From the NCBI GenBank assembly GCA_965199495.1, contig CBDASK010000003.1, positions 448,001-512,000 on the forward strand: a stretch of 64,000 bases of DNA. The letters are read 5' to 3'. The notes beneath the pieces were generated by a model. That model searched no databases, was not told the origin of the DNA, and was given only the letters and a program-made list of their open reading frames with translations. The DNA is from Abditibacterium sp. GTDB lineage: Bacteria; Armatimonadota; Abditibacteriia; Abditibacteriales; Abditibacteriaceae. Both the position numbers and the translations under genes were made by a program. This document shows positions 5,674 through 49,136 of the stretch, in pieces (position 1 is the stretch's first letter; each line of letters opens with the position of its first letter).

Positions 5674-8600
5674 TCAGTCGGAGTTTGGGGGCACCGTTTT
5701 GGTGGTCGGTGCTTCGGCGTGGCTGTTGATGCCGTCGCCATCGGTCGCCACTTCGTCAAGGGGCACGTGATCTATATCGTCGCTATCGCGCTTTTGCGCT
5801 TCGCTCGACTCGCCGTTTAGCGGCGCGCTGTCCAAATCCACGCCCGAAAGCAAGTCATCAAACAGATGGCGGTCGGGGTCTTCGGCGATTAAACCGCGCT
5901 CGACGGCGCGTTCATGCGCGTTGCGCTCGGCGATAATTTTGTCGCCAATCGGCTTGCCGAATCGCCAGAACAGCGCGGGCGTGACGACTTGATCCAAGAG
6001 CGTCGAAGTAATCAGGCCGCCCAAAACGACGACGGCCAAGGGCTGCAAAATCTCTTTGCCGGGCGCGCCTTTGGCCAAAGCCAACGGCACCAAAGCCAAA
6101 CCCGCCGTCAATGCCGTCATCAAGACAGGAACCAATCGTTCGAGCGAGCCGCGCACGATCATCTGTTTCGTCCAGCCCTCGCCTTCCTCGCGCATCAGAT
6201 GTTGGTAGTGCGAGATCATCATGATGCCGTTGCGACTGGTGATGCCGAACAGCGAAATGAAACCGACCAGCGAGGCGACCGACAAAACGCCGCCGGTGAG
6301 GTAAACCGCGATGATGCCGCCGATGATGGCCAAGGGAATGTTGACCATCACCTGAAGCGCCGCGCGTGGATGGCCCAGCGCCATTTGCAAGGTCAGGTAA
6401 ATCGCTACCAAAGAGAAGAGCGAGAGGAACAGAATCAGACGCGAAGCCGATTGCTGCGCCTCGAATTGGCCGCCGTATTCGACAAAGTAGCCGGGCGGCA
6501 TTTGGACGCTCGCGCCGACTTTACTTTCCACGTCCTGCACTACCGAACCCAAATCGCGGCCCGCAACGTTGGCGCTAATCACGATGCGGCGCTGCACGTT
6601 CTCGCGCATAATCGCGTTGGGGCCGAAACCTTCTTCGATGTCGGCCACGCTCGACAAGGGAATTTTGGCGCCGCCCGGAGTGTCAATAAGAACGCCTCGA
6701 ATCGCGTCCAAATTGCCCCGTGCGGCATCGTTGAAGCGCACCAGAACTTCGTAAGATCGCTGGCCTTCCAAAACGATTCCGGCGTTTTGGCCCAGCATCG
6801 CGGTTTCCAATGCTTCGCTCACTTCACCACTCTGCAAGCCGTAGCGCGCCAGAGCGTCGCGCTTCATGCGAATCTGAACCTGGGGAATCTCGACTAACTT
6901 CTCAACCTTCAAATCCACGATGCCCGGAACGCCCAACATCGCTTGCCGAATCTCTTCGGCTTTGGCGCGCAGTGTCGGCAAATCCGGCCCGAAGACTTTA
7001 ACCGCCAACTGCGAGTTGACGCCCGACAGCAAATGATCCAAACGGTGCGAAATCGGTTGGCCGATGTTGAGCGTCACGCCCGGCAAGGTGCCCAACTTCT
7101 GCCGCACATCGGCCAGAATAATTTCTTTGGGACGACCTGCTTTGAGTTCAACCTCGATCTCGCTGGAATGAACGCCCTCGGCGTGTTCGTCCAGTTCGGC
7201 GCGTCCCGTCCGGCGCCCTGTTTCGGTGACTTCGGGGATTTGCTTCAAGAGCAGTTCGGCGGCGGTGCCCAGACGATTACTCTCTTCCAGACTGGTGCCG
7301 GGTTGCGCCAACATATTGATGGTCAGCGAACCTTCGTTGAAGCCGGGCAAAAATTCCTTGCCCATGAATGGCGTCGTCGCCATCGCCACAACGAACAGTA
7401 GACCGGCGCCAATTAGAATCGGCATCGGACGGTTGAGCGTCCAGCCCAGCAAACGCGTGTCCACTTTCTTAAGCCAACGCACCAGGGCGCTGTCTTTTTC
7501 AACGTGCGTAATCGCCTTAGATTTGGGCAACAGATACGACGCTAAAACCGGCGTCACCGTGAGCGACACAAACAATGAAGCGAGGAGCGAGACGATGTAG
7601 GCGATGCCCAAGGGCGCGAAGAGTTTGCCTTCCATACCCGACAGCGCAAATAACGGGATGAAGACCAGCGCCACGATAATTGTGGCGAACACAATCGAGT
7701 TGCGAACTTCGCGGCTCGCCTCGTAGATCACTTGAAGCGGCGGACGTGGCTGCTGTTCGCGGGCGTTCTCGCGCAGACGCCGAAAGACGTTTTCCACGTC
7801 CACAATCGCGTCGTCCACCAATTCGCCAATCGCGACCGCCAAACCGCCCAGCGTCATGGTGTTGACGCCGACGCCGAACTGCTTGAACACAATCGCCGTG
7901 ACCAAAAACGAAAGCGGAATTGCAGTCAGGGTAATCGCCGTCGTGCGGAAGTTGAGCAGAAACAGGAACAAGACGATGGTGACCAGAATCGCCGCGTCGC
8001 GCAGAGCTTCCTCGACGTTGCCGACCGCCGATTCGATGAAGTTGGATTGTCGGAAAATCTGTTTGTTGATCTGCACATCGGCGGGCAAACTCTTTTGGAT
8101 GTCGTCTAAGGCCGCGTCTACTTTACCGGTCAGTTCGAGCGTGTTGGCGCCCGGCTGTTTTTCTATGTTGAGAATCACGGCGGGCGCGGCGTTGGCCGAG
8201 CCGTCGCCACGCTTGAGCTGCGCGCCCGCTACAACCTGCGCGACTTGGCCGACCGTAATCGGCACGCCCGCGTTGCTTTCGATGGCGGTATCCGCGATGT
8301 CTTGCGGCGTTTGGACGCGGCCCAAATTGCGAACCAGATACTCTTTGCCGCCCCGATCAATCCAGCCGCCAGTCGTGTTGACGTTGCTCTTTTCGACGGC
8401 GGCAGTGACTTCGTTCAAGGTCACGCCAAACTGCTTGAGCTTGGCCGGATCGATCAGAACTTGAAGCTGCTTGCGCCCGCCACCGATGTTGATGACCTGT
8501 GCCACGCCCGGCACAGAAAGCAATCGCGGACGCACCACCCAATCGGCTAAGGTTCGCAACTGAAGCGGGTCGGTCTTACCGTCTTTGGACGACATCGAGA

Positions 8601-9024
8601 TCAGCATGATGCTGCCCATGACCGACGAAATCGGCGCCAGTTGAGGAGCCACGTCGGGCGGCAACTGCTCGCGCGCCTGCGCCAGTTTCTCGTTGACGAT
8701 CTGGCGGTCGGTGTAAATATCGGTGCCCCAGGCGAAATCGACGTAAACGATGGACAAACCCGGCGCGCTCGACGAGCGCACGCGTTCGACGCCACTCGCG
8801 CCGTTCATCGAAGTTTCGATGGGCAACGTGACCAGAGTTTCGACTTCTTCGGGCGCCAGACCGTTGGCCTCGGTCATGATGGTGACGACGGGCCGATTGA
8901 GATCGGGCAGCACGTCAACTGGCAAGTTGGCTGTCACGATGCCGCCGTAGACCAGGATCATGGCGGCGAGCGCCATCACGATGGGCCGGTGCGCCAGCGA
9001 CCAAGCGATGATTTTGTTGAGCAT
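5674..9024 (-). CDS. czcA: Heavy-metal RND efflux permease (CusA/CzcA family), operon 1
   Basis: LPVDVLPD, TM4 IGELVDDAIVDVEN, ERLVPVLMT; 1116 aa. Confidence 0.92.
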   Translation of the reverse strand: MLNKIIAWSLAHRPIVMALAAMILVYGGIVTANLPVDVLPDLNRPVVTIMTEANGLAPEEVETLVTLPIETSMNGASGVERVRSSSAPGLSIVYVDFAWGTDIYTDRQIVNEKLAQAREQLPPDVAPQLAPISSVMGSIMLISMSSKDGKTDPLQLRTLADWVVRPRLLSVPGVAQVINIGGGRKQLQVLIDPAKLKQFGVTLNEVTAAVEKSNVNTTGGWIDRGGKEYLVRNLGRVQTPQDIADTAIESNAGVPITVGQVAQVVAGAQLKRGDGSANAAPAVILNIEKQPGANTLELTGKVDAALDDIQKSLPADVQINKQIFRQSNFIESAVGNVEEALRDAAILVTIVLFLFLLNFRTTAITLTAIPLSFLVTAIVFKQFGVGVNTMTLGGLAVAIGELVDDAIVDVENVFRRLRENAREQQPRPPLQVIYEASREVRNSIVFATIIVALVFIPLFALSGMEGKLFAPLGIAYIVSLLASLFVSLTVTPVLASYLLPKSKAITHVEKDSALVRWLKKVDTRLLGWTLNRPMPILIGAGLLFVVAMATTPFMGKEFLPGFNEGSLTINMLAQPGTSLEESNRLGTAAELLLKQIPEVTETGRRTGRAELDEHAEGVHSSEIEVELKAGRPKEIILADVRQKLGTLPGVTLNIGQPISHRLDHLLSGVNSQLAVKVFGPDLPTLRAKAEEIRQAMLGVPGIVDLKVEKLVEIPQVQIRMKRDALARYGLQSGEVSEALETAMLGQNAGIVLEGQRSYEVLVRFNDAARGNLDAIRGVLIDTPGGAKIPLSSVADIEEGFGPNAIMRENVQRRIVISANVAGRDLGSVVQDVESKVGASVQMPPGYFVEYGGQFEAQQSASRLILFLSLFSLVAIYLTLQMALGHPRAALQVMVNIPLAIIGGIIAVYLTGGVLSVASLVGFISLFGITSRNGIMMISHYQHLMREEGEGWTKQMIVRGSLERLVPVLMTALTAGLALVPLALAKGAPGKEILQPLAVVVLGGLITSTLLDQVVTPALFWRFGKPIGDKIIAERNAHERAVERGLIAEDPDRHLFDDLLSGVDLDSAPLNGESSEAQKRDSDDIDHVPLDEVATDGDGINSHAEAPTTKTVPPNSD

Positions 9025-9204
9025 GAAAATTCTTGGTCACCCGTAATCTTAGTGCTATGGGCAACACTCTAACCGTTAAATCTGGCTGCGCAAAAACAGG
9101 CATTCGCCCACGAAAAAGCGAATTTCGTAGCGCAGACGCAAGCCACATTCGAGATTGTTAATACCTATCCGGTCGTGAACCAATTCACGCGTTAAATGTG
9201 AACG

Positions 9205-9242
9205 CTGAATTCCGGCTCAAGGAGAGCCGGAATTCAGTTTTG
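9205..9242. terminator. Perfect 14-bp inverted repeat (terminator or mRNA-stabilising stem)
   Basis: CTGAATTCCGGCTC-aagga-GAGCCGGAATTCAG. The T5 tail lies on the + strand, antisense to the operon. Confidence 0.6.
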
Positions 9243-9249
9243 GGGCCGT

Positions 9250-9627
9250 TTACTTAGCGGTGATGGTGCCCTTGAACATCCTCATTTTACAGGCAAAGCC
9301 GATGATCTGGCCCTTTTTCGGGGTAAAGACGATCTCCTTTTTCTCGCCTTTTTTGAGGCTCACGTCCTGCTTGAGAGCTAGAATAGTGAAGCTATTGGCG
9401 CAACCTTCGCCTTTGGAAACGAAAGTCAAGCGGACTTCCTGTCCGGGCTTAACTTTGATGGCTGCCGGATGAAAGCCTTTGGCGTCAATCGAGACGGTGA
9501 CTTTCTGGTCTTTGTGGGTTTTGGTGTGGTCTTCGCCACCGTGAGCCGAGGCGATTTGCGGCGCCATCGAAGCGCCGAGTAATCCGGCGCCCAGCGCCAG
9601 TCCCGCGAGAATTTGTTTGCTGTTCAT
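9250..9627 (-). CDS. Exported cupredoxin-domain protein (CupA-like)
   Basis: Signal peptide ASA|HGGEDH; GCAN...FACKMRMFKG Cu motif; SD AAGGAG. Confidence 0.85.
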   Translation of the reverse strand: MNSKQILAGLALGAGLLGASMAPQIASAHGGEDHTKTHKDQKVTVSIDAKGFHPAAIKVKPGQEVRLTFVSKGEGCANSFTILALKQDVSLKKGEKKEIVFTPKKGQIIGFACKMRMFKGTITAK

Positions 9628-9699
9628 GTGTGTGTAACTCCTTGTGATTTTGTGTCCCGCGCCGTCGCATCGAAGTGCCTCGGCGCGGGACGGTCGGTG

Positions 9700-9951
9700 T
9701 TAGCCCAGAAAGCTGGTCATCATAGCGCGCAGTTCCACCGGATCAACGGCACAATCTTCCGTTGTCATCTGTTCGCTTATGTGTTCGAAGAGCAGATCAA
9801 AGAAAAGCGCGTTTAATTGCTCACGCAAATCGCACAAAACGGACAAGGCTACGGCGTTTTGCTGCGAATTCAACAGGGGTTGCAACTCGTTCAAGCGTGT
9901 TTCCAGTTGCCTCAATCGCTCTTTGGCCTCACTTCGCGTTAAGTCATTCAT
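9700..9951 (-). CDS. Small helical protein, divergent CsoR/RcnR-like
   Basis: ERLRQLE...LLFEHI...MTSFLG aligns by eye with the CsoR at 46168 (SRISRVS...LLTNHL...LQRFLK) but lacks the canonical Cys residues. Confidence 0.5.
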   Translation of the reverse strand: MNDLTRSEAKERLRQLETRLNELQPLLNSQQNAVALSVLCDLREQLNALFFDLLFEHISEQMTTEDCAVDPVELRAMMTSFLG

Positions 9952-9971
9952 AATGTTCCCTGATTAGAAGC

Positions 9972-11120
9972 TCAGTGCGAGTGCGGCTTGGCCTCGTCCC
10001 CACCGTGCGGCGCCGCTTCGCCCTGCGCGCCCGTGGTCGCAGCCACGTCCACCACAAACGCCGCCGTGATGATGCGATTCTGATGCTGGAACTGGCCCCA
10101 CACTTTGTAAAGCCCGGCCTTGGGGAAGTTGGTGTGAAACATCACGTCCGGCCCGCCGCTCATCGGTTTGTCGAGCTTAATCGCGCCAGTTTTGGCATCG
10201 GCACTTTTGGGCGCATCCATCTTCATATCGCCCATTTTGTCGTCGCCCATTTTCATGTCGCCCATCGAATGATCCATGCCCGCCATTTTGCCATCGGCTC
10301 CCATCGGGTGCGAGTGCAGATACAAATTGGTATCGTTGGACAGAATTACGCAATGGCCCATCGCGCCCAAATAGGGCTGCAAATCTTTGACGGGCACGCC
10401 TTTATCATTGCGAATCTGAAAATGTAGCATGGTGTCTTGGCCCGCGACAATCGGCGAGGGCATCGGCATCAGCGCGACTTCGTAAGGCTTGCCACCGGTC
10501 TCTTCCGGCTCGCCTTCGGGATGCGAGTTGAATTTGTTCACCAGCCACATTCCCTGCGGTTTGTCGGGCGTTAAAGTCACGTTGGCCGCTTTGACGGTTT
10601 CTCCGGCGGTGGCGAACTCGAACTGCGGAATTTCCTGTCCGATGCCCTTAACGGTATAATCGGCGTAGAGCTTGTAAGTGCCCGCAGTGGGCAACGCGGT
10701 CGTGACGACGAATTTGCCGTCGCCTTTAAATTCGGGATGGATGTGGTTGAACCACGACAGATCGTTTTTGACCACGATGAGGTGCATCTTTTTGGTCATC
10801 TCGATCTCGAAATCGTTGATGTTATCGCCGCTTTTGGCGTCGGTGATTTGCAGCGTCCAAGTCGCCGGTTTGCCGACCGGAATCGCGGCGGGCGCGCTGC
10901 TAAAAGCGAGTTTGGTGGCGTTGGTGGGCGGCTTCATTTCGCCCATCGCATCGTCACGACGCGCGCTGGCTTTAGCGTCGTCCGCAACGGCCACAACGTT
11001 CGCATCGCTGGTGTCAGCAACTTCGGTTGTCGTTGGTGCCGCGTTGTTGCAGCCCGCAATGAAGAGCGCGCCACTGAGAAGAGCAAGGCCCAGAACGGGC
11101 AGTTTGAGGTAAGTTTTCAT
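9972..11120 (-). CDS. Heavy-metal-binding lipoprotein with duplicated beta domains, Met/His-rich
   Basis: Lipobox IAGC; MHLIVVKNDLSWFNHIHP; PYLGAMGH...LHSHP; Met-rich GDMKM repeats. Confidence 0.8.
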   Translation of the reverse strand: MKTYLKLPVLGLALLSGALFIAGCNNAAPTTTEVADTSDANVVAVADDAKASARRDDAMGEMKPPTNATKLAFSSAPAAIPVGKPATWTLQITDAKSGDNINDFEIEMTKKMHLIVVKNDLSWFNHIHPEFKGDGKFVVTTALPTAGTYKLYADYTVKGIGQEIPQFEFATAGETVKAANVTLTPDKPQGMWLVNKFNSHPEGEPEETGGKPYEVALMPMPSPIVAGQDTMLHFQIRNDKGVPVKDLQPYLGAMGHCVILSNDTNLYLHSHPMGADGKMAGMDHSMGDMKMGDDKMGDMKMDAPKSADAKTGAIKLDKPMSGGPDVMFHTNFPKAGLYKVWGQFQHQNRIITAAFVVDVAATTGAQGEAAPHGGDEAKPHSH

Positions 11121-11160
11121 GTTGGTGTTTGGTTGGTTATTTTGGAGTTATGGAAGTGGT

Positions 11161-13860
11161 TTAGGCACCACGCGCCGCTTGAGCGCGCAACGCCGCCGCG
11201 CCCTCGGTCACCACGACATCGCTTTGTCCGATGCCGCTTTTGATTTCAGTGCGCCCGGCACTGGTGTTGCCGGTTGTGACTTCGCGGCGCTCGTAACGAG
11301 AGCCTTTAACGACGAACACGATTTTGGCGGCGCCGTCTTCCAGAACCGCGTCGGCAGGAACGGTCAGCGAGGGGTTGCCCACGCCGGTTTGGATTTGCCC
11401 GCGCACAAATACGCCGGGGCGCAGAGAGCCGGGGTTATCAATGGTGGCGCGCGCCGTCAAAGCGCGGGTTTGCGGGTCAACCTGCGAACCGATATAAGAG
11501 AGACGGCCCTCGAACCGCTTGCCGGGCGCGGCATCGCTGGTTAAAGTCACACTGTCACCGATATTCACGCGCGCAGCGTCGGCCTCGAACAAAGCCGCTT
11601 CGAGCGCGACGCTATCGAGATTGACGACCGTCATCAAAGGCGCGTCGGCTTGCACCAGTTCGCCCAAAGCCACGTCACGCGATTGCACGATGCCCGCGAT
11701 AGGCGCGCGAACCGGCATGTCCACACTGGAACCGGGCGAACTTTGCAGCAGCTTGAGAGCATTGCGCGCGGCGTCGGCATCGGCCTGGGCGCTCACCAGA
11801 GCGGCGCGCGCGGCCTGAATTTGCGCGGTGTTGTTGAGGCCCGCGTTGTAAACCTTGCGTTCGCGCCCCAGCGTCGAGTTGGCGACCTCGAGAGCGCGTT
11901 GCGCTTTATAAAGTCCAGCCTGGGCGCTCTGCACTCCGGCGCGGGCGTTGCCCAACTGACTACGATTGGCGATGTTCGCGCTAAAAATCTTCGATTCCCG
12001 ATCCAGTGCCGCCTTTGCCAAGCGCACGCCCGATTGAGCTTGCGCGACCTGCGCGGTGCGCGTGGCTGCATCGGCGCGCGCGCTCGCGAGGGCGCTTTGC
12101 GCCGCCGCGACTTCGGCGGTTCCGTTGACGTTGCTGGCCGCGATTTGCTTCTGGCGCGAGAGTTCTTGCTGAGCGGTTTTCTCGTCGGCTTGCGCGGTTT
12201 GCAGACGCGCGGTCGCGGTGTCGAAGGCTTGCTGCGCGGCTTCCAAATCGCGGCCCGAAACCAAACCCTCGCCGATTAAAGATTGAGCGCGCGATAGATT
12301 GGCGCGTGTCGTTGCCACTTCGCTCTGCGCCGCCGCGCGCGCCGATTGCGCCGCAACGAGGGAACGTTGCGCTTCCTGCGCGGGCCGCGAAACGTAAGCG
12401 CCCGACTGCGCGAGTTGCTGGCGCCTTTTCAGTTCGGCTTGTGCGCCTTTCACGCTGGCGTTGGCGTTGTTCAGCGCCGCTTGCGCAGTTTTGAGCGCCT
12501 CGGTCGCTTGCGATGCTTGAGCGCGCGCCGCTTCGAGCGCGGGATTGGCGTAACCTCCGGCACCTGCGGTTCGCGTCGCGGTGTCGAGGGCAACGCGCGC
12601 ACTTTGCAACGCGGCCTGTTGCACGCGCACATCTCCGGCGGCTTCGGCTTGCGCGCGCCGCGCGGCTTCCAGAGGAGCGCGCGAAAATACGCCCGCGTTG
12701 GCCTGAGCGTTGATAACTTTCAGATTGGACTGCGCGTTTTGCAAGCGCGCCTGAGCCTGAGTAAACGCCGATTGCGCTTCGCCGATGTCACGGCTTTCGA
12801 CGACCGCGACGACTTGGCCTTGTGTCACTTTGTCGCCCTGCTTCACGTTCAGGCTCGTGACCCGGCCCGGCACGAGCGACGACACGCGCACCGACGCACC
12901 TTGATCGGGCGCAATTTGTCCGTTGAAGGCAATGCCCGTTGCCAACTGTGCGACCTTAACCGGCGCGGTTTTGATGTTCAATAAACGCGCGGTTTCGTCA
13001 GGCAACTTGACTTCGCCGGGCGCCAGAACATTGGGCGTTGCCGTCGTAGTGCGCGCAATCAAAGTGATGCGCACGTTGCCCGCTTTCTGGGTTGCGCTCG
13101 TCTGGCCGAGTTGAATGTTGGGCGTCGCCGCTACCGCCGAAGCGGCGGGCGCGGGTTTCTCATCGTCTTCGCCGCCGTGCGCCCACACCGCTTGCGCGCC
13201 CAGGCCCAACAGCGCGACGCATAATAAGGCGGCAGTCACGGTTTCGGGCGCGGGTTTTTCGACTTTGGTGAGGCTCACGTCCGCATCTAAATCATGACGA
13301 GGACGCGATTTGCGCCTCTTGATGAGCCACGCGATGACCGCCAACGCCAGAGCGCCCAGAAGCCACGGCAACGCGCGGCGCCACAGAGTCACAGCGACGA
13401 CGGCTTTGGGCAAAACAAATGTCACGGTGGTGTCGAACGGCTCGCCGGTTTGAGGAGTAACGTGCAGTTCGAGCAGATAAGTTCCCGGCTCGGAAAACTG
13501 ATAAACCGGCGCATCCTCGGCGAAACGGACGATGTAATAACCGGGCGTTTTCTCCGGCTCGGCGGTCACGCGCGAGAGCAAATCGCCGTCGTCGTGCTTC
13601 AAAAAGCCGCGCACTTTGGCGTTCGCCAAAGGCGCTGAAGTGCCCGCCGCGCTTTGATTCAAATCTTCGAGATGAATTTCCAGTTCGGTTTGGGTGGCGC
13701 CACTCGGAGCGGTCGCGGCGGCGGGTTCGGACGCGGCGGCGTGATCTTCGTCGCCGTGCGCGCCCGCGCGAAGCGGCGCAGAAAGTGCCGCGATTACCAA
13801 GCACAGCGCCGTCCATTTTGCGAGAGTTTTTAAATGTTTCATTTCGGTTGGCAAAACCAT
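11161..13860 (-). CDS. RND periplasmic adaptor (CzcB-like) with extra N-terminal domain, two TM segments and a very long alpha-hairpin
   Basis: Lipoyl halves VSSLVPGRVT...GDKV and VRAPIAGIV; beta-barrel DPQTR, LRPG. ATG directly follows the tolC stop (alternative start 13842). Confidence 0.88.
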   Translation of the reverse strand: MVLPTEMKHLKTLAKWTALCLVIAALSAPLRAGAHGDEDHAAASEPAAATAPSGATQTELEIHLEDLNQSAAGTSAPLANAKVRGFLKHDDGDLLSRVTAEPEKTPGYYIVRFAEDAPVYQFSEPGTYLLELHVTPQTGEPFDTTVTFVLPKAVVAVTLWRRALPWLLGALALAVIAWLIKRRKSRPRHDLDADVSLTKVEKPAPETVTAALLCVALLGLGAQAVWAHGGEDDEKPAPAASAVAATPNIQLGQTSATQKAGNVRITLIARTTTATPNVLAPGEVKLPDETARLLNIKTAPVKVAQLATGIAFNGQIAPDQGASVRVSSLVPGRVTSLNVKQGDKVTQGQVVAVVESRDIGEAQSAFTQAQARLQNAQSNLKVINAQANAGVFSRAPLEAARRAQAEAAGDVRVQQAALQSARVALDTATRTAGAGGYANPALEAARAQASQATEALKTAQAALNNANASVKGAQAELKRRQQLAQSGAYVSRPAQEAQRSLVAAQSARAAAQSEVATTRANLSRAQSLIGEGLVSGRDLEAAQQAFDTATARLQTAQADEKTAQQELSRQKQIAASNVNGTAEVAAAQSALASARADAATRTAQVAQAQSGVRLAKAALDRESKIFSANIANRSQLGNARAGVQSAQAGLYKAQRALEVANSTLGRERKVYNAGLNNTAQIQAARAALVSAQADADAARNALKLLQSSPGSSVDMPVRAPIAGIVQSRDVALGELVQADAPLMTVVNLDSVALEAALFEADAARVNIGDSVTLTSDAAPGKRFEGRLSYIGSQVDPQTRALTARATIDNPGSLRPGVFVRGQIQTGVGNPSLTVPADAVLEDGAAKIVFVVKGSRYERREVTTGNTSAGRTEIKSGIGQSDVVVTEGAAALRAQAARGA

Positions 13861-15561
13861 TTATGGAGTCGCGGGCAGAGTTCCCGGCCCAATGCCGGTC
13901 ACGGGCAAATCGCTCGATGGCGGGTTAATCGGCGGCACGACGTTGGGCGGAATCGTGTCATCGGGAATCGTTCCGGGTGCAGCCACGCCGGGCGGCGCAT
14001 CAGCGCCCGTTGGATTTGAAATCGGGCCAAATAACGTGGCGGGAGGCGCGGCACCTAACGCACTTTCGAGCGCCGCTTCGCCCGTGCGCGTGCCGACTAA
14101 AGCTTGCAAATACTCGGTTTGGACTTGGCGCAGAGTGCGTTGCGCGTCCAAAACTTCGAGATAAGTCGAGGCGCCCGCCGCATAACCGATTTGAGTTTTG
14201 CGCAGCAAATCGAGCGTTTGCGGCACGATCTCGGTGCGATACCGCTCGACGGTTTGCCGTTGCTGCTGCAAGCGAATCAACGCCTGTTCGACTTGCGTTG
14301 TCGCCTGTTGACGCAGGGCTTCTAATTGCGCTTGTTGAGCACGCACTTCGGCCTGTGCCGCCTTTTTCTCGCGGCCAATGCTGCCAAAATCGAAAATCGG
14401 AAGCGTAACTACCGCGCGCAGTGCCGTGCCGCTGGAACCGTCGAAAAAGCTGCCGCGCCGCGCTTGTAATTCGACTTCAGGCAATCGCTGGCGACTGATA
14501 GCATTGACCTGCGCCTGACGCGCTTCCAAAGTCGCCTGTGCGCTCACGATGTCGGGCCGCACCAACGCGCCCGGCAATAAAGCGTCGCGTTGCGCCACTA
14601 AATCCGAGCCGACCTGCGACGAGGCCGGAAGCGGTGCGCCACCGTTTGTCGTGGCGTTCGCCGCACCAACTGGCGCTGGTGAAACTGACACGTTAGGTAA
14701 CGCTGTGCGCGGCACGTTACCTTCGAGCGAGCCGCCCGCCGCAGGAGAATTGGCGTTCGTTGAGCCGCGAACGGTTGCCGTTGAATTTAACGGCAAAGTG
14801 GCAACAGGCACTTGCAGCACCGACGCGAAATCGGTGGCGAGGGGTAGCGAAACGCGGAGCGGCGTCTGCGGCGCGCGTCCGACGAGTTGATTCAAAGCGG
14901 CGCGGCGCGCCAAACGTTCGGCGCGCGCGGCATCGAGTTCGTCTTCGACGCGCGCGAGTTCGAGAGCGGCGCGTTGCGCTTGAACGGCGGGCACATCGCC
15001 AACCGAAGCGCGGCGCGCGGCGGCCTCACGGAACAATTGCGCGACTTGAACTTGTGTTGCACCCAGATTTTCGGCTTCCTGCGCGGCGAACAAATCGGCG
15101 ACCGCGTTTTTGACCTGAACCACCAGACTGCGCTCGGCCAAGGTGTTTTGCGCCTGCGCGCCGCGCACGTTGGCGGCGAAGACTTTAGCACTCGCGCGTC
15201 GTCTGCCGAACAGATCGAGCGGCTGCGAAATAATGATTTCGGTGTCGGCGGCGCCTCGGTCGCCGATGATGCGCGGCACGGCTTGAATCGTCGGGTTGAG
15301 AACCACGCGCGCACCGGCGGCGCGTTCTTTCGCGGCGGTCAGATTTTCGCGGGCGATGGGCAACTGCGGGTTATTTTGCAGTGCCATCTGAATCAGTTCT
15401 TCGACGGAAATTTCGGGTTCCGCCGCCAATTCGGGCGCAAATGCGACGACGGGCGGCGTGTTGGGCGCGGGCGGCAACTCAGTTTCTACGGACTGCGCGT
15501 GCGCGGCGGAAACTAACGCCAGGGGCGCGATGACTAAACAAACTTTGGGGAAAACGGACAC
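13861..15561 (-). CDS. TolC/CzcC-family outer membrane factor, operon 1
   Basis: ALQNNPQL, GYAAGASTYLEVLDAQR. GTG start at 15561 with GGAGG 6 nt upstream. Confidence 0.88.
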   Translation of the reverse strand: MSVFPKVCLVIAPLALVSAAHAQSVETELPPAPNTPPVVAFAPELAAEPEISVEELIQMALQNNPQLPIARENLTAAKERAAGARVVLNPTIQAVPRIIGDRGAADTEIIISQPLDLFGRRRASAKVFAANVRGAQAQNTLAERSLVVQVKNAVADLFAAQEAENLGATQVQVAQLFREAAARRASVGDVPAVQAQRAALELARVEDELDAARAERLARRAALNQLVGRAPQTPLRVSLPLATDFASVLQVPVATLPLNSTATVRGSTNANSPAAGGSLEGNVPRTALPNVSVSPAPVGAANATTNGGAPLPASSQVGSDLVAQRDALLPGALVRPDIVSAQATLEARQAQVNAISRQRLPEVELQARRGSFFDGSSGTALRAVVTLPIFDFGSIGREKKAAQAEVRAQQAQLEALRQQATTQVEQALIRLQQQRQTVERYRTEIVPQTLDLLRKTQIGYAAGASTYLEVLDAQRTLRQVQTEYLQALVGTRTGEAALESALGAAPPATLFGPISNPTGADAPPGVAAPGTIPDDTIPPNVVPPINPPSSDLPVTGIGPGTLPATP

Positions 15562-15567
15562 AAAAAA

Positions 15568-15670
15568 CCTCCACATTTCGCTCTGAAACGGCTTTAGCAA
15601 CGCGCCACAAGACGCGCGAAAAGCGAGGTCAAACTTCGAGAGTCGACCTGATTCAGAGGGAAACGGGAGG
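15568..15670 (-). promoter_or_regulatory. mRNA helix pairing the leader Pro-Pro-Val-Ser-Leu-stop codons with the tolC SD
   Basis: mRNA CCUCCCGUUUCCCUCUGAA (15670-15652) pairs with UUCAGAGCGAAAUGUGGAGG (15587-15568): 18 bp including one GU, one mismatch and one bulge. Confidence 0.8.
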
Positions 15671-16204
15671 GGCACGCCCAATCAAGGACGCGAGCGAAAG
15701 CCGTTGAGGTTTGCCAATTGGTGGCCCGGCGCGCGAGTTCAAACCGCGCAACGCATCGAAGCGGTAAATCGGCAACGCGCTGGCGGCGGCATAAATAACC
15801 GCGTGCAAATCGGCTTTGTGTTGGTGCGGCGAACCGATGGCGACAACAGTCGCGTTGACCGGTTCGCTCGAACAGGAACAGCAGGTCGCCGGAGCCTGTA
15901 ACGTCGCGGCTTTAACGGCAACTTGCGCGTGATCGTGATACTCGCTGGCGTCATCGGAGTGATGGGACGCGCCAGAATCTTCATCTGCGTGAGAGTGAGA
16001 TTCGCTCACTTCGACGCCGTGCGAATGCCCGCCCGCTTCGAGCGAACAATCCATCGAAGCCGCGAAAGGAGTCGAAACGAAAAGCAAGAGCGCCATCAAC
16101 AGCGGCCACGCCGGACGACGCACGCCGATGCGCCACAGAGCGACCAATCCGCCCCATAGCGCGGCGGAGATGTTTCCGCGTGCGTCGTTAGTTGGCTTTC
16201 TCAT
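15653..16204 (-). CDS. RAPP leader peptide 1 (exported, His-rich, CCSC; DUF2946/CruR/CutF-like)
   Basis: Hydrophobic N-terminal segment, His/Asp-rich middle, CCSC, C-terminus RAGPP...ASLIGRAPPVSL*. Start uncertain. Confidence 0.75.
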   Translation of the reverse strand: MRKPTNDARGNISAALWGGLVALWRIGVRRPAWPLLMALLLFVSTPFAASMDCSLEAGGHSHGVEVSESHSHADEDSGASHHSDDASEYHDHAQVAVKAATLQAPATCCSCSSEPVNATVVAIGSPHQHKADLHAVIYAAASALPIYRFDALRGLNSRAGPPIGKPQRLSLASLIGRAPPVSL

Positions 16205-16269
16205 TTCGATTTTTGCCGTTGCGATTCGACCTGAGCAAAATTTTACGACAGTTGGACGCGTCCTGCAAT

Positions 16270-16286
16270 ATACGCCAGATGGGTAT
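16270..16286. promoter_or_regulatory. Putative CsoR-type operator
   Basis: ATACGCCAGATGGGTAT (ATAC-N9-GTAT), between leader 1 and the divergent DUF305 gene. Confidence 0.6.
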
Positions 16287-16451
16287 AACGCAAACAACAG
16301 AACTGGGTTCCTGTTTAGTGGATTCCGACTCAGCTATGGCGCCCGCGAAATCATAACTTTGAAGACAATTTCAAACGTGCATCAACATCTTTGCATTGAC
16401 CAAGGCAGCGATTTTCATTTATCATGGAGAAAATTTATAAGTTCATCTCAC

Positions 16452-16811
16452 ATGAAAAATATCCTGCCTTACACTCTTTCTTTCGCCCTGCTGGGAGCGG
16501 CATTGGGCGCCGGAAGCACTTACGCTTTAATCCGACAAAATGAGAAGCCGCTTTTGACGGTGGATCATAGCTCGATGCAAATGGCCTCTAATTCTATGGC
16601 AGACGGATTGAAAGGCAAAACCGGCGATGAGTTCGATAAAGCGTTTATTTCGCAGATGATCGAACACCACGAAGGCGCCGTCACAATGGCAGTGCAGGCG
16701 CACCAAAACGCGCGTCACGACGAAATCAAAGCGATGGCCGAAGATATTATCAGCGCGCAAACCCGCGAAATCGATCAGATGAGAAATTGGCAGAAGCAGT
16801 GGGGTTATTAA
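16452..16811 (+). CDS. DUF305 / CopM-like metal-binding protein
   Basis: FDKAFISQMIEHHEGAVTMA...AQTREIDQM; N-terminal signal or anchor. Confidence 0.85.
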   Translation: MKNILPYTLSFALLGAALGAGSTYALIRQNEKPLLTVDHSSMQMASNSMADGLKGKTGDEFDKAFISQMIEHHEGAVTMAVQAHQNARHDEIKAMAEDIISAQTREIDQMRNWQKQWGY

Positions 16812-32287: not shown

Positions 32288-33855
32288 TGATTTTCGCCTC
32301 CCAGGGGAGCGCCGGGTAGCGTGTTGGTGGGCGGAGCGCCCGTCGGATCAAGGGGCGCGACGACGTTGGGCGGGATGGTGTTTTGGGGCACGGTGCCGGG
32401 CACAGCCACGCCGGGCGGCGCGTTCAAACCGTCGGGATTGTTGAGCGGGTCGAGCGCGCCGGTGTAAGTGGCGCCCAGCGCGCTTTCGAGCGCGGCCTCG
32501 CCGCTGCGAACGCCGACCAAGGCTTGCAGATATTCGGTTTGGATTTGGCGGGCGGCGCGTTGCGCTTCCAAAACTTCGAGGTAAGTCGAGGCGCCTTGGG
32601 CGTAGCCGAGTTGCGTTTTTCGCAGCAAGTCGAGCGTCTGGGGCACCAGCGATTCACGGTAGCGCGCCACCAGAGCACGATTTTGCTGGAGCGTCACCAG
32701 CGCGCTTTCGACCTGCGCGGCGACCTGCGAGCGCAACAGTTCGACCTGCTTTTCCTGCGCCTGCGCTTCAAACTCGGCGGCGCGCTGCTGGTTTTTGATG
32801 TTGCCCAGATCGAAGAGCGGCACGGTCAACACGGCGCGTAGCGAGGTCGAAGCGGAATCGAAAACGCCGCCGCGCCGCGCCTGAATTTCGAGTTGCGGGC
32901 GCCGCGTGCGCGCAATCGCCGTCACCTGAGCGCGCGCCGCTTCGAGCGAGGCTTGGGCCGACAAAACGTCGGGCCGCTGCAACGCGCCCGGCAACAAAGC
33001 CGCGCGCGAGGCGACCAAATCGGAGCCGATCTGCGACGACGCCGGAACGATTTGACTGGGCGATAAAGGCTGAATCGTCGGCGCCGTTGGTGAAAGCGGC
33101 GGCGCGGCATCGAGCGCAACGGCGGGCACGCCGGTGTTTGGCGCGGCGGACGAAAAGACGCCAAAAGCGCCACTTTCGGGTAGCGCCACGCGTAGGGGAG
33201 CTTCAGGCGCCTGTCCGATGAGTTGATTGAGCAACGCGCGCCGCGACAGACGCGCGGCGCGGGCGCGGTCGAGTTCAATGGCGGCGCGGTCGAATTCGAG
33301 TTGCGCGCGCTGGGTTTGCACCGGCGGCACATCGCCCAATTCGGCGCGGCGCGCGGCGGCATCGCGGAACTGCCCGGCGATGTCGAGTTGGGTTTGGCCC
33401 AGCGACTCGGCTTCCTGGGCGGCGAACAGATCGGCAGCGGCGTTTTTCACGCTCACGATGAGCGAACGCGTCGCCAGATCGCGCTCGGCCTCGGCACGGC
33501 GCACCTGCGCGTCGAAGATACGGCGCCCCGCGCGGCGCTGGCCGAACAGGTCTATCGGCTGCGAGAGAATGATCTCTTCGTCGCGCGAGTTGGCGTTACC
33601 AAAAACGCCGGGCACGATTTGAAGCGTCGGGCCGAGCGAAGCGCGCGCGGACTGGGCGCGGGCGCGCGCCGCCTCATAGTTGGCGGCGGCGATTTGCGGT
33701 TGCGGGTTGAGTTGCAGGGCGCGCGCGATCAGATCGTCAAGCGCAACTGCGGGTTCGGAAGGAATGGAATTGGCGGGAACGGCGGAAGCGACATCTTGCG
33801 CTCCGGCGGGCGCGGCTGCGACTAAAAGCAGCGCGATGAAAATGCGAGGGTTCAA
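32284..33855 (-). CDS. czcC: TolC/CzcC-family outer membrane factor, operon 2
   Basis: ALQLNPQ, GYAQGASTYLEVLEAQR. TTG start with AGGAG 8 nt upstream. Confidence 0.88.
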   Translation of the reverse strand: MNPRIFIALLLVAAAPAGAQDVASAVPANSIPSEPAVALDDLIARALQLNPQPQIAAANYEAARARAQSARASLGPTLQIVPGVFGNANSRDEEIILSQPIDLFGQRRAGRRIFDAQVRRAEAERDLATRSLIVSVKNAAADLFAAQEAESLGQTQLDIAGQFRDAAARRAELGDVPPVQTQRAQLEFDRAAIELDRARAARLSRRALLNQLIGQAPEAPLRVALPESGAFGVFSSAAPNTGVPAVALDAAPPLSPTAPTIQPLSPSQIVPASSQIGSDLVASRAALLPGALQRPDVLSAQASLEAARAQVTAIARTRRPQLEIQARRGGVFDSASTSLRAVLTVPLFDLGNIKNQQRAAEFEAQAQEKQVELLRSQVAAQVESALVTLQQNRALVARYRESLVPQTLDLLRKTQLGYAQGASTYLEVLEAQRAARQIQTEYLQALVGVRSGEAALESALGATYTGALDPLNNPDGLNAPPGVAVPGTVPQNTIPPNVVAPLDPTGAPPTNTLPGAPLGGENQ

Positions 33856-33859
33856 AAAA

Positions 33860-33899
33860 GGTTCTCCTGAGTTCGATGGGCGATCAAATCAGGGTAACC
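33860..33899 (-). promoter_or_regulatory. SD-sequestering hairpin starting at the last RAPP codon
   Basis: mRNA GGUUACCCUGAUUUGAU-cgccc-AUCGAACUCAGGAGAACC: 15 bp, enclosing the AGGAG of czcC. Confidence 0.8.
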
Positions 33900-34360
33900 G
33901 GCGGCGCGCGGTGCGGCAAAGAGGCGCGCACCAAACGGCCCACGAGCGGCGGCACGCTCACTGGCCCGTCACGCCCAAAGACCGCCGCGCGCTGCCACAG
34001 CGCGACCACAACTGATGCAGCCACAGCCACGACCCGGACCAGAGCGATCCAAAGCAACGCGGGCGCCACCACGAGCGGCGCAAACGCGCAGGGAAGGTTC
34101 ATGTTTTCGTCCACGCTCGCGCAAACGTCGGTGTCGGTGATGCCGGTGATCGAATGCGTAACGACCATCGCAACCGTCGCAATCGCGCGCGTGGCGGCGC
34201 TAAGCGCAGCGCCGGGCATGATGTCCGTCTGGCAATCGGAGCCAGCCAAGCCGCACCAGAACGTGTGAGTCGCCAGCAAAAACACCAGCCACAGCGCCAC
34301 GCCCGACGTTTGGAAAGAAACGGGGCGCGCCGGTTGGTAGGGTTGGCGGGTGCGACTCAT
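33884..34360 (-). CDS. RAPP leader peptide 2 (two hydrophobic segments, Cys/His)
   Basis: Ends RDGP...RASLPHRAPPVTLI*; first gene of operon 2. Confidence 0.7.
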   Translation of the reverse strand: MSRTRQPYQPARPVSFQTSGVALWLVFLLATHTFWCGLAGSDCQTDIMPGAALSAATRAIATVAMVVTHSITGITDTDVCASVDENMNLPCAFAPLVVAPALLWIALVRVVAVAASVVVALWQRAAVFGRDGPVSVPPLVGRLVRASLPHRAPPVTLI

Positions 34361-46167: not shown

Positions 46168-46458
46168 TTACTTGAGAAAACGCTGAAGCGAAACGCGAAC
46201 TTCTTCGATCAATTCCTCTTTACTGAGCGGCTTGGAATCAAGATGCGCGTCCTCGCTCCCGTGTCCCATGACGCAGGTTTCGAGATGGTTGGTCAGCAGT
46301 TCCACGCCCAACGAATCCAACGCGGCGCGAACAGCGGAAATTTGGTTGAGAATGTCGAGACAGTAGCGATCTTCGTCAATCATTTTACTGACGCCGTTGA
46401 TTTGCCCACTGACACGGCTGATGCGCGACTTGATGGCTTTGCGAGAAGTTTCTTTCAT
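46168..46458 (-). CDS. csoR: CsoR copper-sensing repressor
   Basis: RVSGQINGV, YCLDIL, NHLETC (C-H-C fingerprint). Confidence 0.92.
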   Translation of the reverse strand: MKETSRKAIKSRISRVSGQINGVSKMIDEDRYCLDILNQISAVRAALDSLGVELLTNHLETCVMGHGSEDAHLDSKPLSKEELIEEVRVSLQRFLK

Positions 46459-46472
46459 GATGCTTACACTGA

Positions 46473-46497
46473 ATACCCCATTAGGGTGTGATGTCAA
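46473..46497 (-). promoter_or_regulatory. CsoR autoregulatory operator and -35 element
   Basis: ATACCC-CATTA-GGGTGT, with a minus-strand TTGACA at 46497-46492. Confidence 0.7.
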
Positions 46498-46606
46498 GAC
46501 GATAGAGCAGGGTTCACGTTCAGAAAAACCGGCGAACACTTCCACCGCGTGTTAAGAGTTGTCGGTTCGCACGGGAAATTTGTGATGTCGCTAAAGCGTT
46601 GGTCAC

Positions 46607-46623
46607 ATACACTGGCGGAGTAT
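46607..46623. promoter_or_regulatory. Putative CsoR-type operator
   Basis: ATACACTGGCGGAGTAT upstream of leader 3. Confidence 0.6.
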
Positions 46624-46692
46624 AGAAATTGGAACGGTCACCAGAGAGACTCGTCCGGTTTTGAGCGTTTCGCTGGTAAACGCACTTTTATT

Positions 46693-47184
46693 ATGAGTCA
46701 GTGGCGTCGCCTCCCTTTCGTCTTGATGGCCCTGTTTGCGCTGTGTGCGCTGACGGTGCCTTCGTTGGCGTGGGCGTGCCCCATCACTGGGCGTAGCGGA
46801 GCCGCAACTCAGGTTTGTATCAATGCTCCGGCTTCTGGTCAGTCGAACCAGGCTGCCAACGTGATGGCGTGTTGTGCGCCCACGCATGGAAACGCCGCGA
46901 TGTCAGGCAACGGGTGCCTGGGGACGTGCTGCAAAGCCGTGCCACAGTTGCCAAACGGCGACCCCGCCAAAAATACTGCGCTTTCGCAAGCGCATTGGAA
47001 TATCGCCGGTCTGCTCGATCAATTGTCGCAGACCGCTCATACTGTTTTTATCCTCGCGCCTCCGGTCGCTCCACTCGTTATCGAGCCGCCGCGCGCACTT
47101 TTTCGGGGTGACGCTTCCGTTGCTCCTCTGCTCACCCAATTCGCGTTCTCTCTGTTCGCGGGTCGCGCTCCACCCATCGGTTAA
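46693..47184 (+). CDS. RAPP leader peptide 3 (exported, Cys-rich)
   Basis: Signal peptide AWA|C; CC, CLGTCC; ends FSLFAGRAPPIG*. Confidence 0.75.
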   Translation: MSQWRRLPFVLMALFALCALTVPSLAWACPITGRSGAATQVCINAPASGQSNQAANVMACCAPTHGNAAMSGNGCLGTCCKAVPQLPNGDPAKNTALSQAHWNIAGLLDQLSQTAHTVFILAPPVAPLVIEPPRALFRGDASVAPLLTQFAFSLFAGRAPPIG

Positions 47185-48628: not shown

Positions 48629-49117
48629 ATGACAAATTTCCTGAAACTTCCCCTGCTCGCCGGTGCGCTGGCCTTGACCTGGACGTTGAGCGGTTGCGGC
48701 AACAACGCCGAACCGACCGCCCCAACTTCGCAAACCGAAACCGCGCCGATGAGCGGCAACATGGCCGCGTCAAACGCGGCAGTCCCGGCAGCAGCCACGC
48801 CGGGCACGGCGACGCAGGCCGGGCCGTTCGAGGTCACGCTTGCCCTTGATGCGCCCGAACCCAAAGTCGGTGACGCGCAGTTCAAAGCGACCGTGATGCG
48901 CGACGGCAAGCCGGTGACGGACGCGACGGTGAAGCTCGCGTTGACGATGCCGCAGATGAAAATGGACGGCCCCAACGCGACGCTCGCTCACACGCAGGGC
49001 GGTGTTTACGCGGGCAAAGCCAACCTGAGCATGGGCGGCAGTTATAGCGCCAAAGTCAGCGTGAACGCGAGCGGCGCGAGTGGCGATGCGCTTTACGATT
49101 TCCGCGCGGTTCAGTAA
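48629..49117 (+). CDS. YtkA/FixH-like lipoprotein
   Basis: Lipobox LSGC; PVTDATV, TMPQMKM, LSMGG. Confidence 0.8.
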   Translation: MTNFLKLPLLAGALALTWTLSGCGNNAEPTAPTSQTETAPMSGNMAASNAAVPAAATPGTATQAGPFEVTLALDAPEPKVGDAQFKATVMRDGKPVTDATVKLALTMPQMKMDGPNATLAHTQGGVYAGKANLSMGGSYSAKVSVNASGASGDALYDFRAVQ

Positions 49118-49136
49118 GGCGCGGAGACGCCAAACC

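Follow-up and report, generated by a model that had tools for sequence, protein, structure and literature searches.

A probable metal-sensing arrest-peptide leader in Abditibacterium, with stall codons predicted to mask the start of a copper-type RND efflux operon

The DNA analyzed here (the window, a stretch of 64,000 nucleotides (nt) to whose positions all coordinates refer unless stated otherwise) originates from Abditibacterium sp. (assembly GCA_965199495.1, contig CBDASK010000003.1, forward-strand positions 448,001-512,000). It contains an open reading frame (ORF) of 183 amino acids (aa), termed leader 1, which is separated by a spacer of 91 nt from the gene of an outer-membrane efflux factor (the OEP gene), the first gene of a resistance-nodulation-division (RND) operon. 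On balance, we consider this ORF probably to be a metal-sensing arrest-peptide leader (an upstream ORF) of a copper-type RND efflux operon, working in a manner similar to CutF and CruR. All features of leader 1 are located on the minus strand:

15653..16204, minus strand: leader 1 ORF, 183 aa plus stop, MRKPTND...GRAPPVSL-stop (ORF list and translation; ATG at 16204, UGA at 15655-15653)
16046..16114, minus strand: hydrophobic segment with RRP just before it, a putative export signal or N-terminal anchor (hydrophobic 19-mers with Kyte-Doolittle values (KD)>=1.6; ORF residues 62-84)
15929..16027, minus strand: variable His-rich stretch, presumed to bind metal (GGHSH...HDH; from alignments)
15872..15883, minus strand: cysteine motif CCSC, of the CxxC type (codons TGC TGT TCC TGT)
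15722..15733, minus strand: RAGP (next residue P), the first of two arrest-like motifs, 46 residues downstream of CCSC and 15 residues before RAPP
15665..15676, minus strand: terminal arrest motif RAPP (CGU GCC CCU CCC), followed by V-S-L-stop (translation), 65 residues after CCSC
15652..15670, minus strand: 5' arm of the predicted masking helix, the anti-Shine-Dalgarno (anti-SD) strand, made of the Pro-Pro-Val-Ser-Leu-stop codons and an A (CCU CCC GUU UCC CUC UGA A; stems of the minimum free energy (MFE) fold)
15653..15655, minus strand: UGA stop codon of the leader, within the 5' arm
15568..15587, minus strand: 3' arm of the predicted helix, with the Shine-Dalgarno (SD) sequence GGAGG (15572-15568) and an in-frame AUG (15576-15574)
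13861..15561, minus strand: outer-membrane efflux factor of the CusC/CzcC/TolC type, GUG start, 566 aa (Pfam OEP PF02321, E 3.5e-46)
5674..13860, minus strand: remainder of the operon, with a membrane-fusion protein (11161-13860), a YtkA-like protein (9972-11120) and the RND pump (5674-9024) (Pfam HlyD_D23, YtkA and ACR_tran)

The region 15540-15700 of the minus strand folds with -58.4 kcal/mol (z -4.65), and none of the 200 dinucleotide shuffles used as a control folded as well. Both the MFE and the centroid fold contain the predicted masking helix, in which three stems with a total of 18 bp are interrupted by one bulged U and one 1x1 internal loop and the two arms are 64 nt apart:

15670-15666 with 15572-15568, minus strand: stem CCUCC/GGAGG, 5 bp (fold)
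15665-15660 with 15579-15574, minus strand: stem CGUUUC/GAAAUG, 6 bp (fold)
15658-15652 with 15587-15581, minus strand: stem CUCUGAA/UUCAGAG, 7 bp (fold)
15626..15649, minus strand: sub-hairpin P2, AGGUCGA/UUGACCU (15649-15643 with 15632-15626; fold)
15591..15624, minus strand: sub-hairpin P3, GCUUU/AAAGC (15624-15620 with 15595-15591), which contains UUUUCGCGCGUCU (fold)
15617-15611 with 15606-15600, minus strand: inner stem of P3, GCGCGUC/GGCGCGU (fold)

A previous sequence-only reading of this DNA had proposed that the Pro codons of RAPP pair over 18 bp, at a distance of about 65 nt, with the SD of a tolC gene, that GGAGG is thereby buried 6 nt before the GTG, and that the loop encloses two sub-hairpins. 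The computed fold agrees with each of these points, including the order GGAGG, UUUUUU and GUG (15561-15559) at the start of the OEP gene. The name tolC holds in so far as the gene encodes an outer-membrane factor; this protein is, however, not TolC proper but belongs to the CusC/CzcC type of heavy-metal RND operons, and its NCBIfam matches all stayed under their cut-offs. The in-frame AUG lies five codons before the GUG and inside the helix. Since the 3' arm covers both the SD and this AUG, either possible start of the OEP gene would be masked. The hexamer CGUUUC is present twice on the minus strand, at 15660-15665 and, just 5' of the 3' arm, at 15585-15590; with the 5' arm held, the 3' arm can fold locally (CGUUUC-AGAGC-GAAAUG) into a predicted 'on' hairpin that leaves GGAGG single-stranded. 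No Rfam covariance model matched 15300-16500 at E<=1. The idea of an attenuator was discarded, as a terminator scan gave two sites, both inside the leader ORF, which equals the shuffle mean of 2.0, and none in the spacer.

The codons at the end of leader 1 are unusually well suited to masking. CCU is the rarest Pro codon of the genome (6.2% of Pro codons), and it is the first Pro codon of the motif in 9 of 12 leaders for which DNA was at hand, i.e. in all five type-1 leaders, in leader 4 and in three relatives of leader 4 (the further leaders of this genome are described below). CCG or CCC is found in the three type-2 leaders, where the helix begins just after the Pro codons. Among the 2304 synonymous sets encoding PPVSL the native codons are tied at the maximum SD opening energy of 13.45 kcal/mol (listed 11th among near-equal top values), and, weighted by codon usage, a fraction of 0.0023 of the synonymous recodings reaches equal masking. 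Of the 16 ways to encode Pro-Pro, CCU CCC masks best. A swap to CCG CCG, which the sequence-only reading had expected to weaken masking, lowers the computed opening energy from 13.45 to 7.67 kcal/mol.

With a ribosome footprint of -12..+15 and the P site placed on the first Pro codon (CCU, 15670-15668), a stalled ribosome would occupy 16 of the 19 nt that form the 5' arm. In this model the cost of opening the SD behind leader 1 drops from 12.4 to 3.7 kcal/mol, in line with the earlier proposal that a ribosome on RAPP frees the SD. The same drop is predicted for all five type-1 junctions (from 11.5-13.9 kcal/mol in free RNA to 3.2-4.7 kcal/mol with the ribosome on RAPP), for all three type-2 junctions (from 10.8-16.7 to 0.9-4.0 kcal/mol) and for leaders 4, 5 and 6 (from 7.8-9.7 to 2.2-5.0 kcal/mol). 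Leader 7 has no masking helix, and the modelled ribosome leaves its SD opening unchanged. The median opening cost at 86 control junctions of the genome was 5.2 kcal/mol, and the value of 12.4 kcal/mol was reached by only 2 of them.

DNA of orthologues comprised five type-1 sequences (the window, L004, L005, L012 and L013) and three type-2 sequences. In searches for orthologue DNA, genome contigs yielded one locus, metagenome contigs two and a set of 27 genomes of the family three more genomes; the contigs of four runs contained partial pieces of relatives, and among the pieces listed none spans the whole 261-base stretch used for comparison. All five type-1 sequences fold alike, with the long helix and two sub-hairpins in a three-way architecture. 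P2 is present in each of these folds with changed sequence, and L005 keeps the helix with a UAA stop and an altered 3' arm.

The protein encoded by leader 1 has a basic N-terminus ahead of its hydrophobic segment and belongs to no Pfam family at E<=0.01. A word-based protein search returned 16 homologues with 54-100% identity, all of which begin at the same Met. Among the 16 close type-1 proteins, RAGP is present in every one, the terminal motif is RAPP in nine, CxxC (CCSC or CCCC) is found in 14, and H61 and H63 are nearly invariant. A hidden Markov model search of 1.84 billion representatives gave 34 matches at E<=0.001, one of them a 107-aa fragment; the other 33 were counted. The terminal motif of these full-length representatives reads RAPP in 30 cases and RSPP, LSPP and PAPP in one case each, and it is always followed by three or four residues. 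The sequence-only reading had pointed out RAGP (15733-15722) as lying 15 residues upstream of RAPP; this motif is not incidental, because R(A/D)GP occurs in 33 of 33 full-length representatives, about 19 residues upstream of the terminal motif. In an alignment of 35 sequences with a mean column identity of 23%, the only invariant columns are R, G and P of R(A/D)GP (R159, G161, P162) and the two P of RAPP, while R and A of RAPP, one Cys (C109, the only Cys column so conserved in the wide family), one His (H93) and one Leu are nearly invariant. The Arg and Ala codons of RAPP vary synonymously among orthologues (CGU GCC versus CGC GCA), and RAPP is kept with differing codons across seven paralogous leaders; given the synonymous differences between orthologues, selection acts on the peptide. 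Attempts to name the family gave only unnamed clusters in the ESM Atlas, one with DUF6769 in 33% of its members, and a search with leader 6 returned a single match without a Pfam family.

Leader 1 is not the only ORF of this kind in the genome. R[AG]PP lies within the last 12 residues of 19 of the 32,104 ORFs of at least 50 aa, and seven of these ORFs are leader-like, with RAPP or RGPP 1 to 4 residues before the stop. Downstream of the seven we found OEP genes in three cases (two in the window), a redoxin/AhpC-type gene, a gene for a 641-aa rusticyanin-like cupredoxin, a CarboxypepD_reg-like gene (behind the RGPP leader) and, behind leader 3, a 286-nt gap before the next plus-strand ORF. The other six are (positions outside the window carry the prefix G000:C3):

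33884-34360, junction to 33855, minus strand: leader 2, 158 aa, with multiple hydrophobic segments, ...RDGP...HRAPPVTLI-stop, 28 nt before the second OEP gene, which has a UUG start
46549-47184, plus strand: leader 3, Cys-rich, ending in GRAPPIG-stop
G000:C3 4052456-4052887, plus strand: leader-like ORF before an OEP gene (RAPP/RGPP end)
G000:C3 4605494-4606042, plus strand: leader-like ORF before the redoxin/AhpC-type gene (RAPP/RGPP end)
G000:C3 4312360-4312791, minus strand: leader-like ORF before the 641-aa rusticyanin-like gene (RAPP/RGPP end)
G000:C3 2055458-2055937, minus strand: leader-like ORF before the CarboxypepD_reg-like gene (RAPP/RGPP end)

In leader 2 the codons right after RAPP (GGUUACCCUGA) are predicted to pair with UCAGGAGAACC, which covers the SD, and this helix is kept in two orthologues with one C-G to U-A double change. 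A helix joining the leader end to the next ribosome binding site is likewise predicted for three of the four leader-like ORFs outside the window. When the last 24 nt of the leader (plus 3 nt past the stop) were compared with the next ribosome binding site, at least 9 MFE pairs were found at 4 of 6 leader junctions and at 4 of the 86 control junctions. Two relatives of leader 4 from another genus pair CCUCCU with AAGGAG (12 bp in L036, 8+6 bp in L038); for L035, an orthologue of leader 4 with an uncertain downstream start, no masking is predicted (5.9 versus 6.0 kcal/mol). Leader 3 differs from this pattern in lacking both an OEP gene at its locus and an obvious masking helix. It is oriented divergently from a CsoR-type metal repressor (46168-46545, minus strand; PF02583, E 2.3e-25) and is followed by a gap of 286 nt and a plus-strand ORF of 103 aa with a signal-like N-terminus, beyond which lie a Met-rich cupredoxin protein, a YtkA protein, a 922-aa membrane-fusion protein with a cupredoxin end and an RND pump. 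Leader 3 may thus work in the Rho-dependent mode of CruR.

The motifs kept by the leaders are rare elsewhere. In 2,747 ORFs of at least 300 codons the ratio of observed to expected occurrences is 0.26 for RAPP, 0.05 for RGPP, 0.31 for RAGP and 0.18 for RDGP, which makes them 3- to 20-fold rarer than expected, compared with 1.35 for AAPP, 1.13 for KAPP and 1.04 for LAPP. The organism avoids exactly the motifs its leaders keep. Avoidance of RAPP/RGPP-type motifs has been reported for bacteria in general (PMC12992588), and the depletion of RAPP, RGPP, RAGP and RDGP suggests that they impede translation in this phylum too. Shown by computation alone are the helix and how it is conserved, the choice of codons, the invariant motifs and how rare these are in long ORFs.

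Two sequence features of the leader junctions were noted in addition. The 13-mer UUUUCGCGCGUCU is common to the spacers of leader 1 (15610-15622, minus strand) and leader 4 (G000:C3 4052915, plus strand) and has five copies in the genome, of which the other three lie inside long ORFs unrelated to leaders. The spacer of leader 6 (G000:C3 4312315, minus strand) shares the 11-mer UUCGCGCGUCU, which has 22 genome copies; each time UUUUCGCGCGUCU or UUCGCGCGUCU stands at the base of a GC hairpin inside the masked loop. Furthermore, the three OEP genes behind RAPP leaders apparently start with codons other than AUG (GUG at 15559-15561, UUG at 33853-33855 and UUG at G000:C3 4052973), 5-7 nt after a strong SD, so that initiation would depend heavily on access to the SD.

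The arrest itself and its site are adopted from published work. PMC12992588 reports ribosome arrest by RAPP and RGPP across differing sequence contexts, with the Arg being irreplaceable, and a CruR toeprint in which the two Pro codons occupy the P site and the A site. By analogy, we propose that the nascent chain of leader 1 would be exported via its N-terminal signal and that its His-rich and CCSC segment would meet metal outside the cytoplasm. Metal would prolong the arrest on the C-terminal RAPP, with CCU and CCC occupying the P and A sites, respectively; the analogy for a metal-prolonged stall comes from CutF (PMC9973294; abstract of bioRxiv 10.1101/2025.02.05.636593). The arrested ribosome would then cover CCUCCCGUUUCCCUCU, the strand that is otherwise paired with GGAGG and the start region of the outer-membrane gene, the ribosome binding site would become free, and the pump genes would be translated, the later ones by coupling. 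With no ribosome on these codons, the helix would keep the site closed. By analogy with CutF, more metal would lead to more translation of the pump, which is the useful direction for an efflux system.

A ribosome at RAGP would stand 57 nt short of the anti-SD and could therefore not open the helix by itself. R(A/D)GP may be either the upper, tunnel-contacting end of a single arrest peptide of about 23 residues or a separate first pause. Taken further, the module R(A/D)GP, about 15 residues, RAPP, three residues and stop could act as a two-step switch, in which the metal would be read during a pause at R(A/D)GP, when the metal site is located at the translocon, and RAPP would park the ribosome on the anti-SD codons and execute the switch; the seven leaders would then constitute a translation-level metal regulon. 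We regard this extension as speculative and rather unlikely. If true, such a tandem-checkpoint arrest peptide would be one not described for SecM, CutF, CruR or ApdA/ApdP.

Several observations weigh against an arrest-peptide leader, and some of them favour its main rival, plain translational coupling, in which any passing or terminating ribosome opens the helix, RAPP causes at most a short pause, the nascent chain does not sense metal and metal control would be transcriptional. A modelled ribosome terminating at the UGA frees the SD as well as the stalled one (3.7 versus 3.7 kcal/mol), and a stall would in that case alter the dwell time but not the principle of SD opening. PAPP replaces RAPP in 7 of the 16 close orthologues, despite the Arg reported as irreplaceable for such an arrest (PMC12992588), and the masking helix is still kept in L005, one of these PAPP orthologues. 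The presence of a CsoR-type repressor in the same island would also suit transcriptional control. Coupling leaves unexplained, however, why the only invariant residues of 35 diverged sequences are those of two arrest-like motifs, why motifs that are depleted 3- to 20-fold stand 1 to 4 residues before the stop in seven paralogous leaders, and why the leaders keep export signals and Cys/His motifs. We judge plain coupling to be unlikely. Further points against the leader hypothesis concern the support for the helix, for which the sequence-only reading had suggested looking for covariation in homologues. No significant covariation was detected: in the MAFFT alignment of the five type-1 orthologues, which is not structure-aware and in which the 3' arm of L005 is misaligned, helix 1 has 19 pairs, of which 13 are identical throughout and none shows a double change, and the type-2 alignment has a compensatory change in 1 of 11 pairs, a result equalled or bettered by 169 of 500 shuffles. 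The commoner orthologue variant, U for G15581, breaks one pair with nothing to compensate for it, and the 86 control junctions were defined by crude ORF calls and not by gene annotation. In addition, the distance between CxxC and RAPP is 65 residues in leader 1 compared with 45 in CruR (PMC9426467), and leader 1 falls under the gathering cut-off of Pfam DUF2946 (PF11162; 23.7 bits).

Transcriptional control of the CruR type, in which a ribosome arrested on RAPP would block Rho-dependent termination and the helix would be secondary, has a precedent, as this is how CruR uses RAPP (PMC9426467), and the 286-nt gap behind leader 3 would suit it. The spacer of leader 1 measures only 91 nt and is almost wholly paired, leaving little free RNA for Rho, and it contains no terminator-like site according to the terminator scan; the anti-SD codon choice would moreover have no role. 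For leader 1 we consider this mode very unlikely. Still more doubtful is the explanation that the product of the ORF is a stable accessory protein of the CopL/CzcI type that binds metal in the periplasm or membrane, with motifs acting in the mature protein and the pairing a by-product of high GC content. It could account for the weak match to NCBIfam CopL_fam (NF033807; E 0.039, 14.6 bits, under the cut-off of 40 bits), for a length of 183 aa beyond the limit of CutF-like searches and for a His-rich stretch resembling metal chaperones, but not for a body that diverges freely while the extreme C-terminus is fixed, for a helix with a z of -4.65 and a codon choice at the masking maximum, or for the same pairing design in non-homologous junctions. 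The arrest-peptide leader remains our preferred explanation.

The surroundings of leader 1 are in keeping with a role in metal handling. The membrane-fusion gene next in the operon starts directly at the stop of the OEP gene, and the window as a whole is a metal-resistance island with two further RND systems, a multicopper oxidase, a P1B ATPase with an HMA domain, cupredoxins, DUF305 and DUF326 proteins and the CsoR-type repressor. Two membrane-fusion proteins of the window are unusually long (11161-13860, minus strand, 899 aa; 49080-51848, plus strand, 922 aa); one is extended at its N-terminus by a long segment with His-rich stretches, and the other carries a YtkA domain at its N-terminus and a cupredoxin domain at its C-terminus.

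Among described systems, leader 1 is closest to CutF in its function and closest to CruR in its motif. PMC9973294 describes CutF of Rhodobacter capsulatus (cutFOG) as an exported leader that binds Cu, ends in a Pro-rich segment and has a stem-loop covering the SD; next to CutF-like genes, OEP genes are reported there more often than any other kind. Leader 1 resembles CutF in having a Cys metal motif, a Pro-rich C-terminus and a putative export signal, and in a predicted helix that hides the SD of the next gene and would be opened by a ribosome lingering at the leader end. CutF acts only in cis, and more metal leads to more of the detoxifying protein; leader 1 may behave alike. Differences exist as well: the anti-SD of CutF (CTTC) is part of an intergenic stem-loop, its Pro motif is a PPP repeat and its downstream gene encodes a multicopper oxidase, whereas in leader 1 the predicted anti-SD consists of the Pro-Pro stall codons inside the ORF, RAPP is accompanied by the invariant R(A/D)GP and an efflux channel is encoded downstream. 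The rules used for CutF-like proteins include a length of less than 150 aa (PMC9973294), which leader 1 (183 aa) and leader 2 (158 aa) both exceed. As for the remaining rules, a PP motif is found within the last 15 residues of leader 1 (...GRAPPVSL), an SD-shielding stem-loop is predicted, and its 91-nt spacer precedes the OEP gene of an RND operon.

CruR (Bp2923) of Bordetella pertussis, whose regulation requires RAPP and CXXC (PMC9426467), shares with leader 1 a CxxC-type motif, an export signal (putative here) and the position as first gene of a copper operon, and its CXXC-to-RAPP spacing of 45 (PMC9426467) is close to the CCSC-to-RAGP spacing of 46 in leader 1. In contrast to the mechanism proposed here, CruR employs Rho-dependent termination, copper relieves the arrest and thereby switches off an uptake gene, and the spacer comprises 162 nt as opposed to 91 nt. 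RAPP close to the C-terminus, here followed by three residues and the stop, is also a criterion for DUF2946 proteins. The DUF2946 model nevertheless gave only sub-threshold matches for 4 of 17 aligned members of the leader family (best E 0.19; best in the whole genome E 2.91); it exceeds its cut-off in 14 of 401 genomes of the phylum and at E<=0.001 in none of 12 of this genus. A comparison of 35 family members with 10 DUF2946 proteins of the phylum by hhalign aligned only 18 C-terminal columns (LxS...RAPP; probability 11%, E 0.0027). By the Pfam model and this comparison, the family of leader 1 appears to be separate from DUF2946. As the DUF2946 model misses the family and a filter of less than 150 aa would discard it, surveys probably undercount such switches.

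The sequence-only reading had named secM-secA as the precedent. The idea that an arrested ribosome frees the SD stands, but the closest precedents are CutF (PMC9973294) and CruR (PMC9426467). SecM of Escherichia coli is similar in being an exported leader whose arrest exposes the next SD by disrupting a helix, and in its RAGP (PMC9973294 and PMC12992588). Membership of leader 1 in the SecM family was rejected, since leader 1 lacks FxxxxWIxxxxGI ahead of its RAGP, which is preceded by ...RGLNS, and the downstream gene is an OEP gene, not secA; furthermore, SecM responds to Sec activity, while leader 1 presumably responds to metal. ApdA/ApdP and other RAPP/RGPP arrest peptides (PMC12992588, PMC10951233 and PMC7897499) are, like leader 1, small proteins with a localisation signal and an R-A-P-P core close to their C-terminus, encoded before a regulated gene, and the motif is avoided elsewhere in the proteome; these peptides, however, monitor Sec or YidC. 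The features by which RAPP/RGPP arrest peptides are recognized in PMC12992588 (core near the C-terminus, less than 300 aa, localisation signal) are all found in leader 1, the signal being putative. Metal-related classes of upstream ORFs named there are those of TonB-dependent receptors, YcnI, PCu(A)C and PepSY; the word 'efflux' does not occur in the main text of that paper.

In summary, the idea of the sequence-only reading appears to be right but, given CutF and CruR, not new, and every part of it that could be tested in silico came out as proposed in our models. The Abditibacterium locus probably shows the logic of CutF and CruR, known only from 2022 on and in Pseudomonadota, in another phylum. 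It offers a clean test case, because the predicted stall codons are at the same time the anti-SD nucleotides, the only invariant residues of the protein are those of two arrest-type motifs, and seven leaders in one genome head genes for efflux, cupredoxins and thiol oxidoreductases. Judged from its sequence, the system would differ from those described in three respects: the anti-SD is formed by the stall codons themselves, R(A/D)GP and RAPP form an invariant tandem, and the leaders constitute a separate family in a phylum outside those studied.

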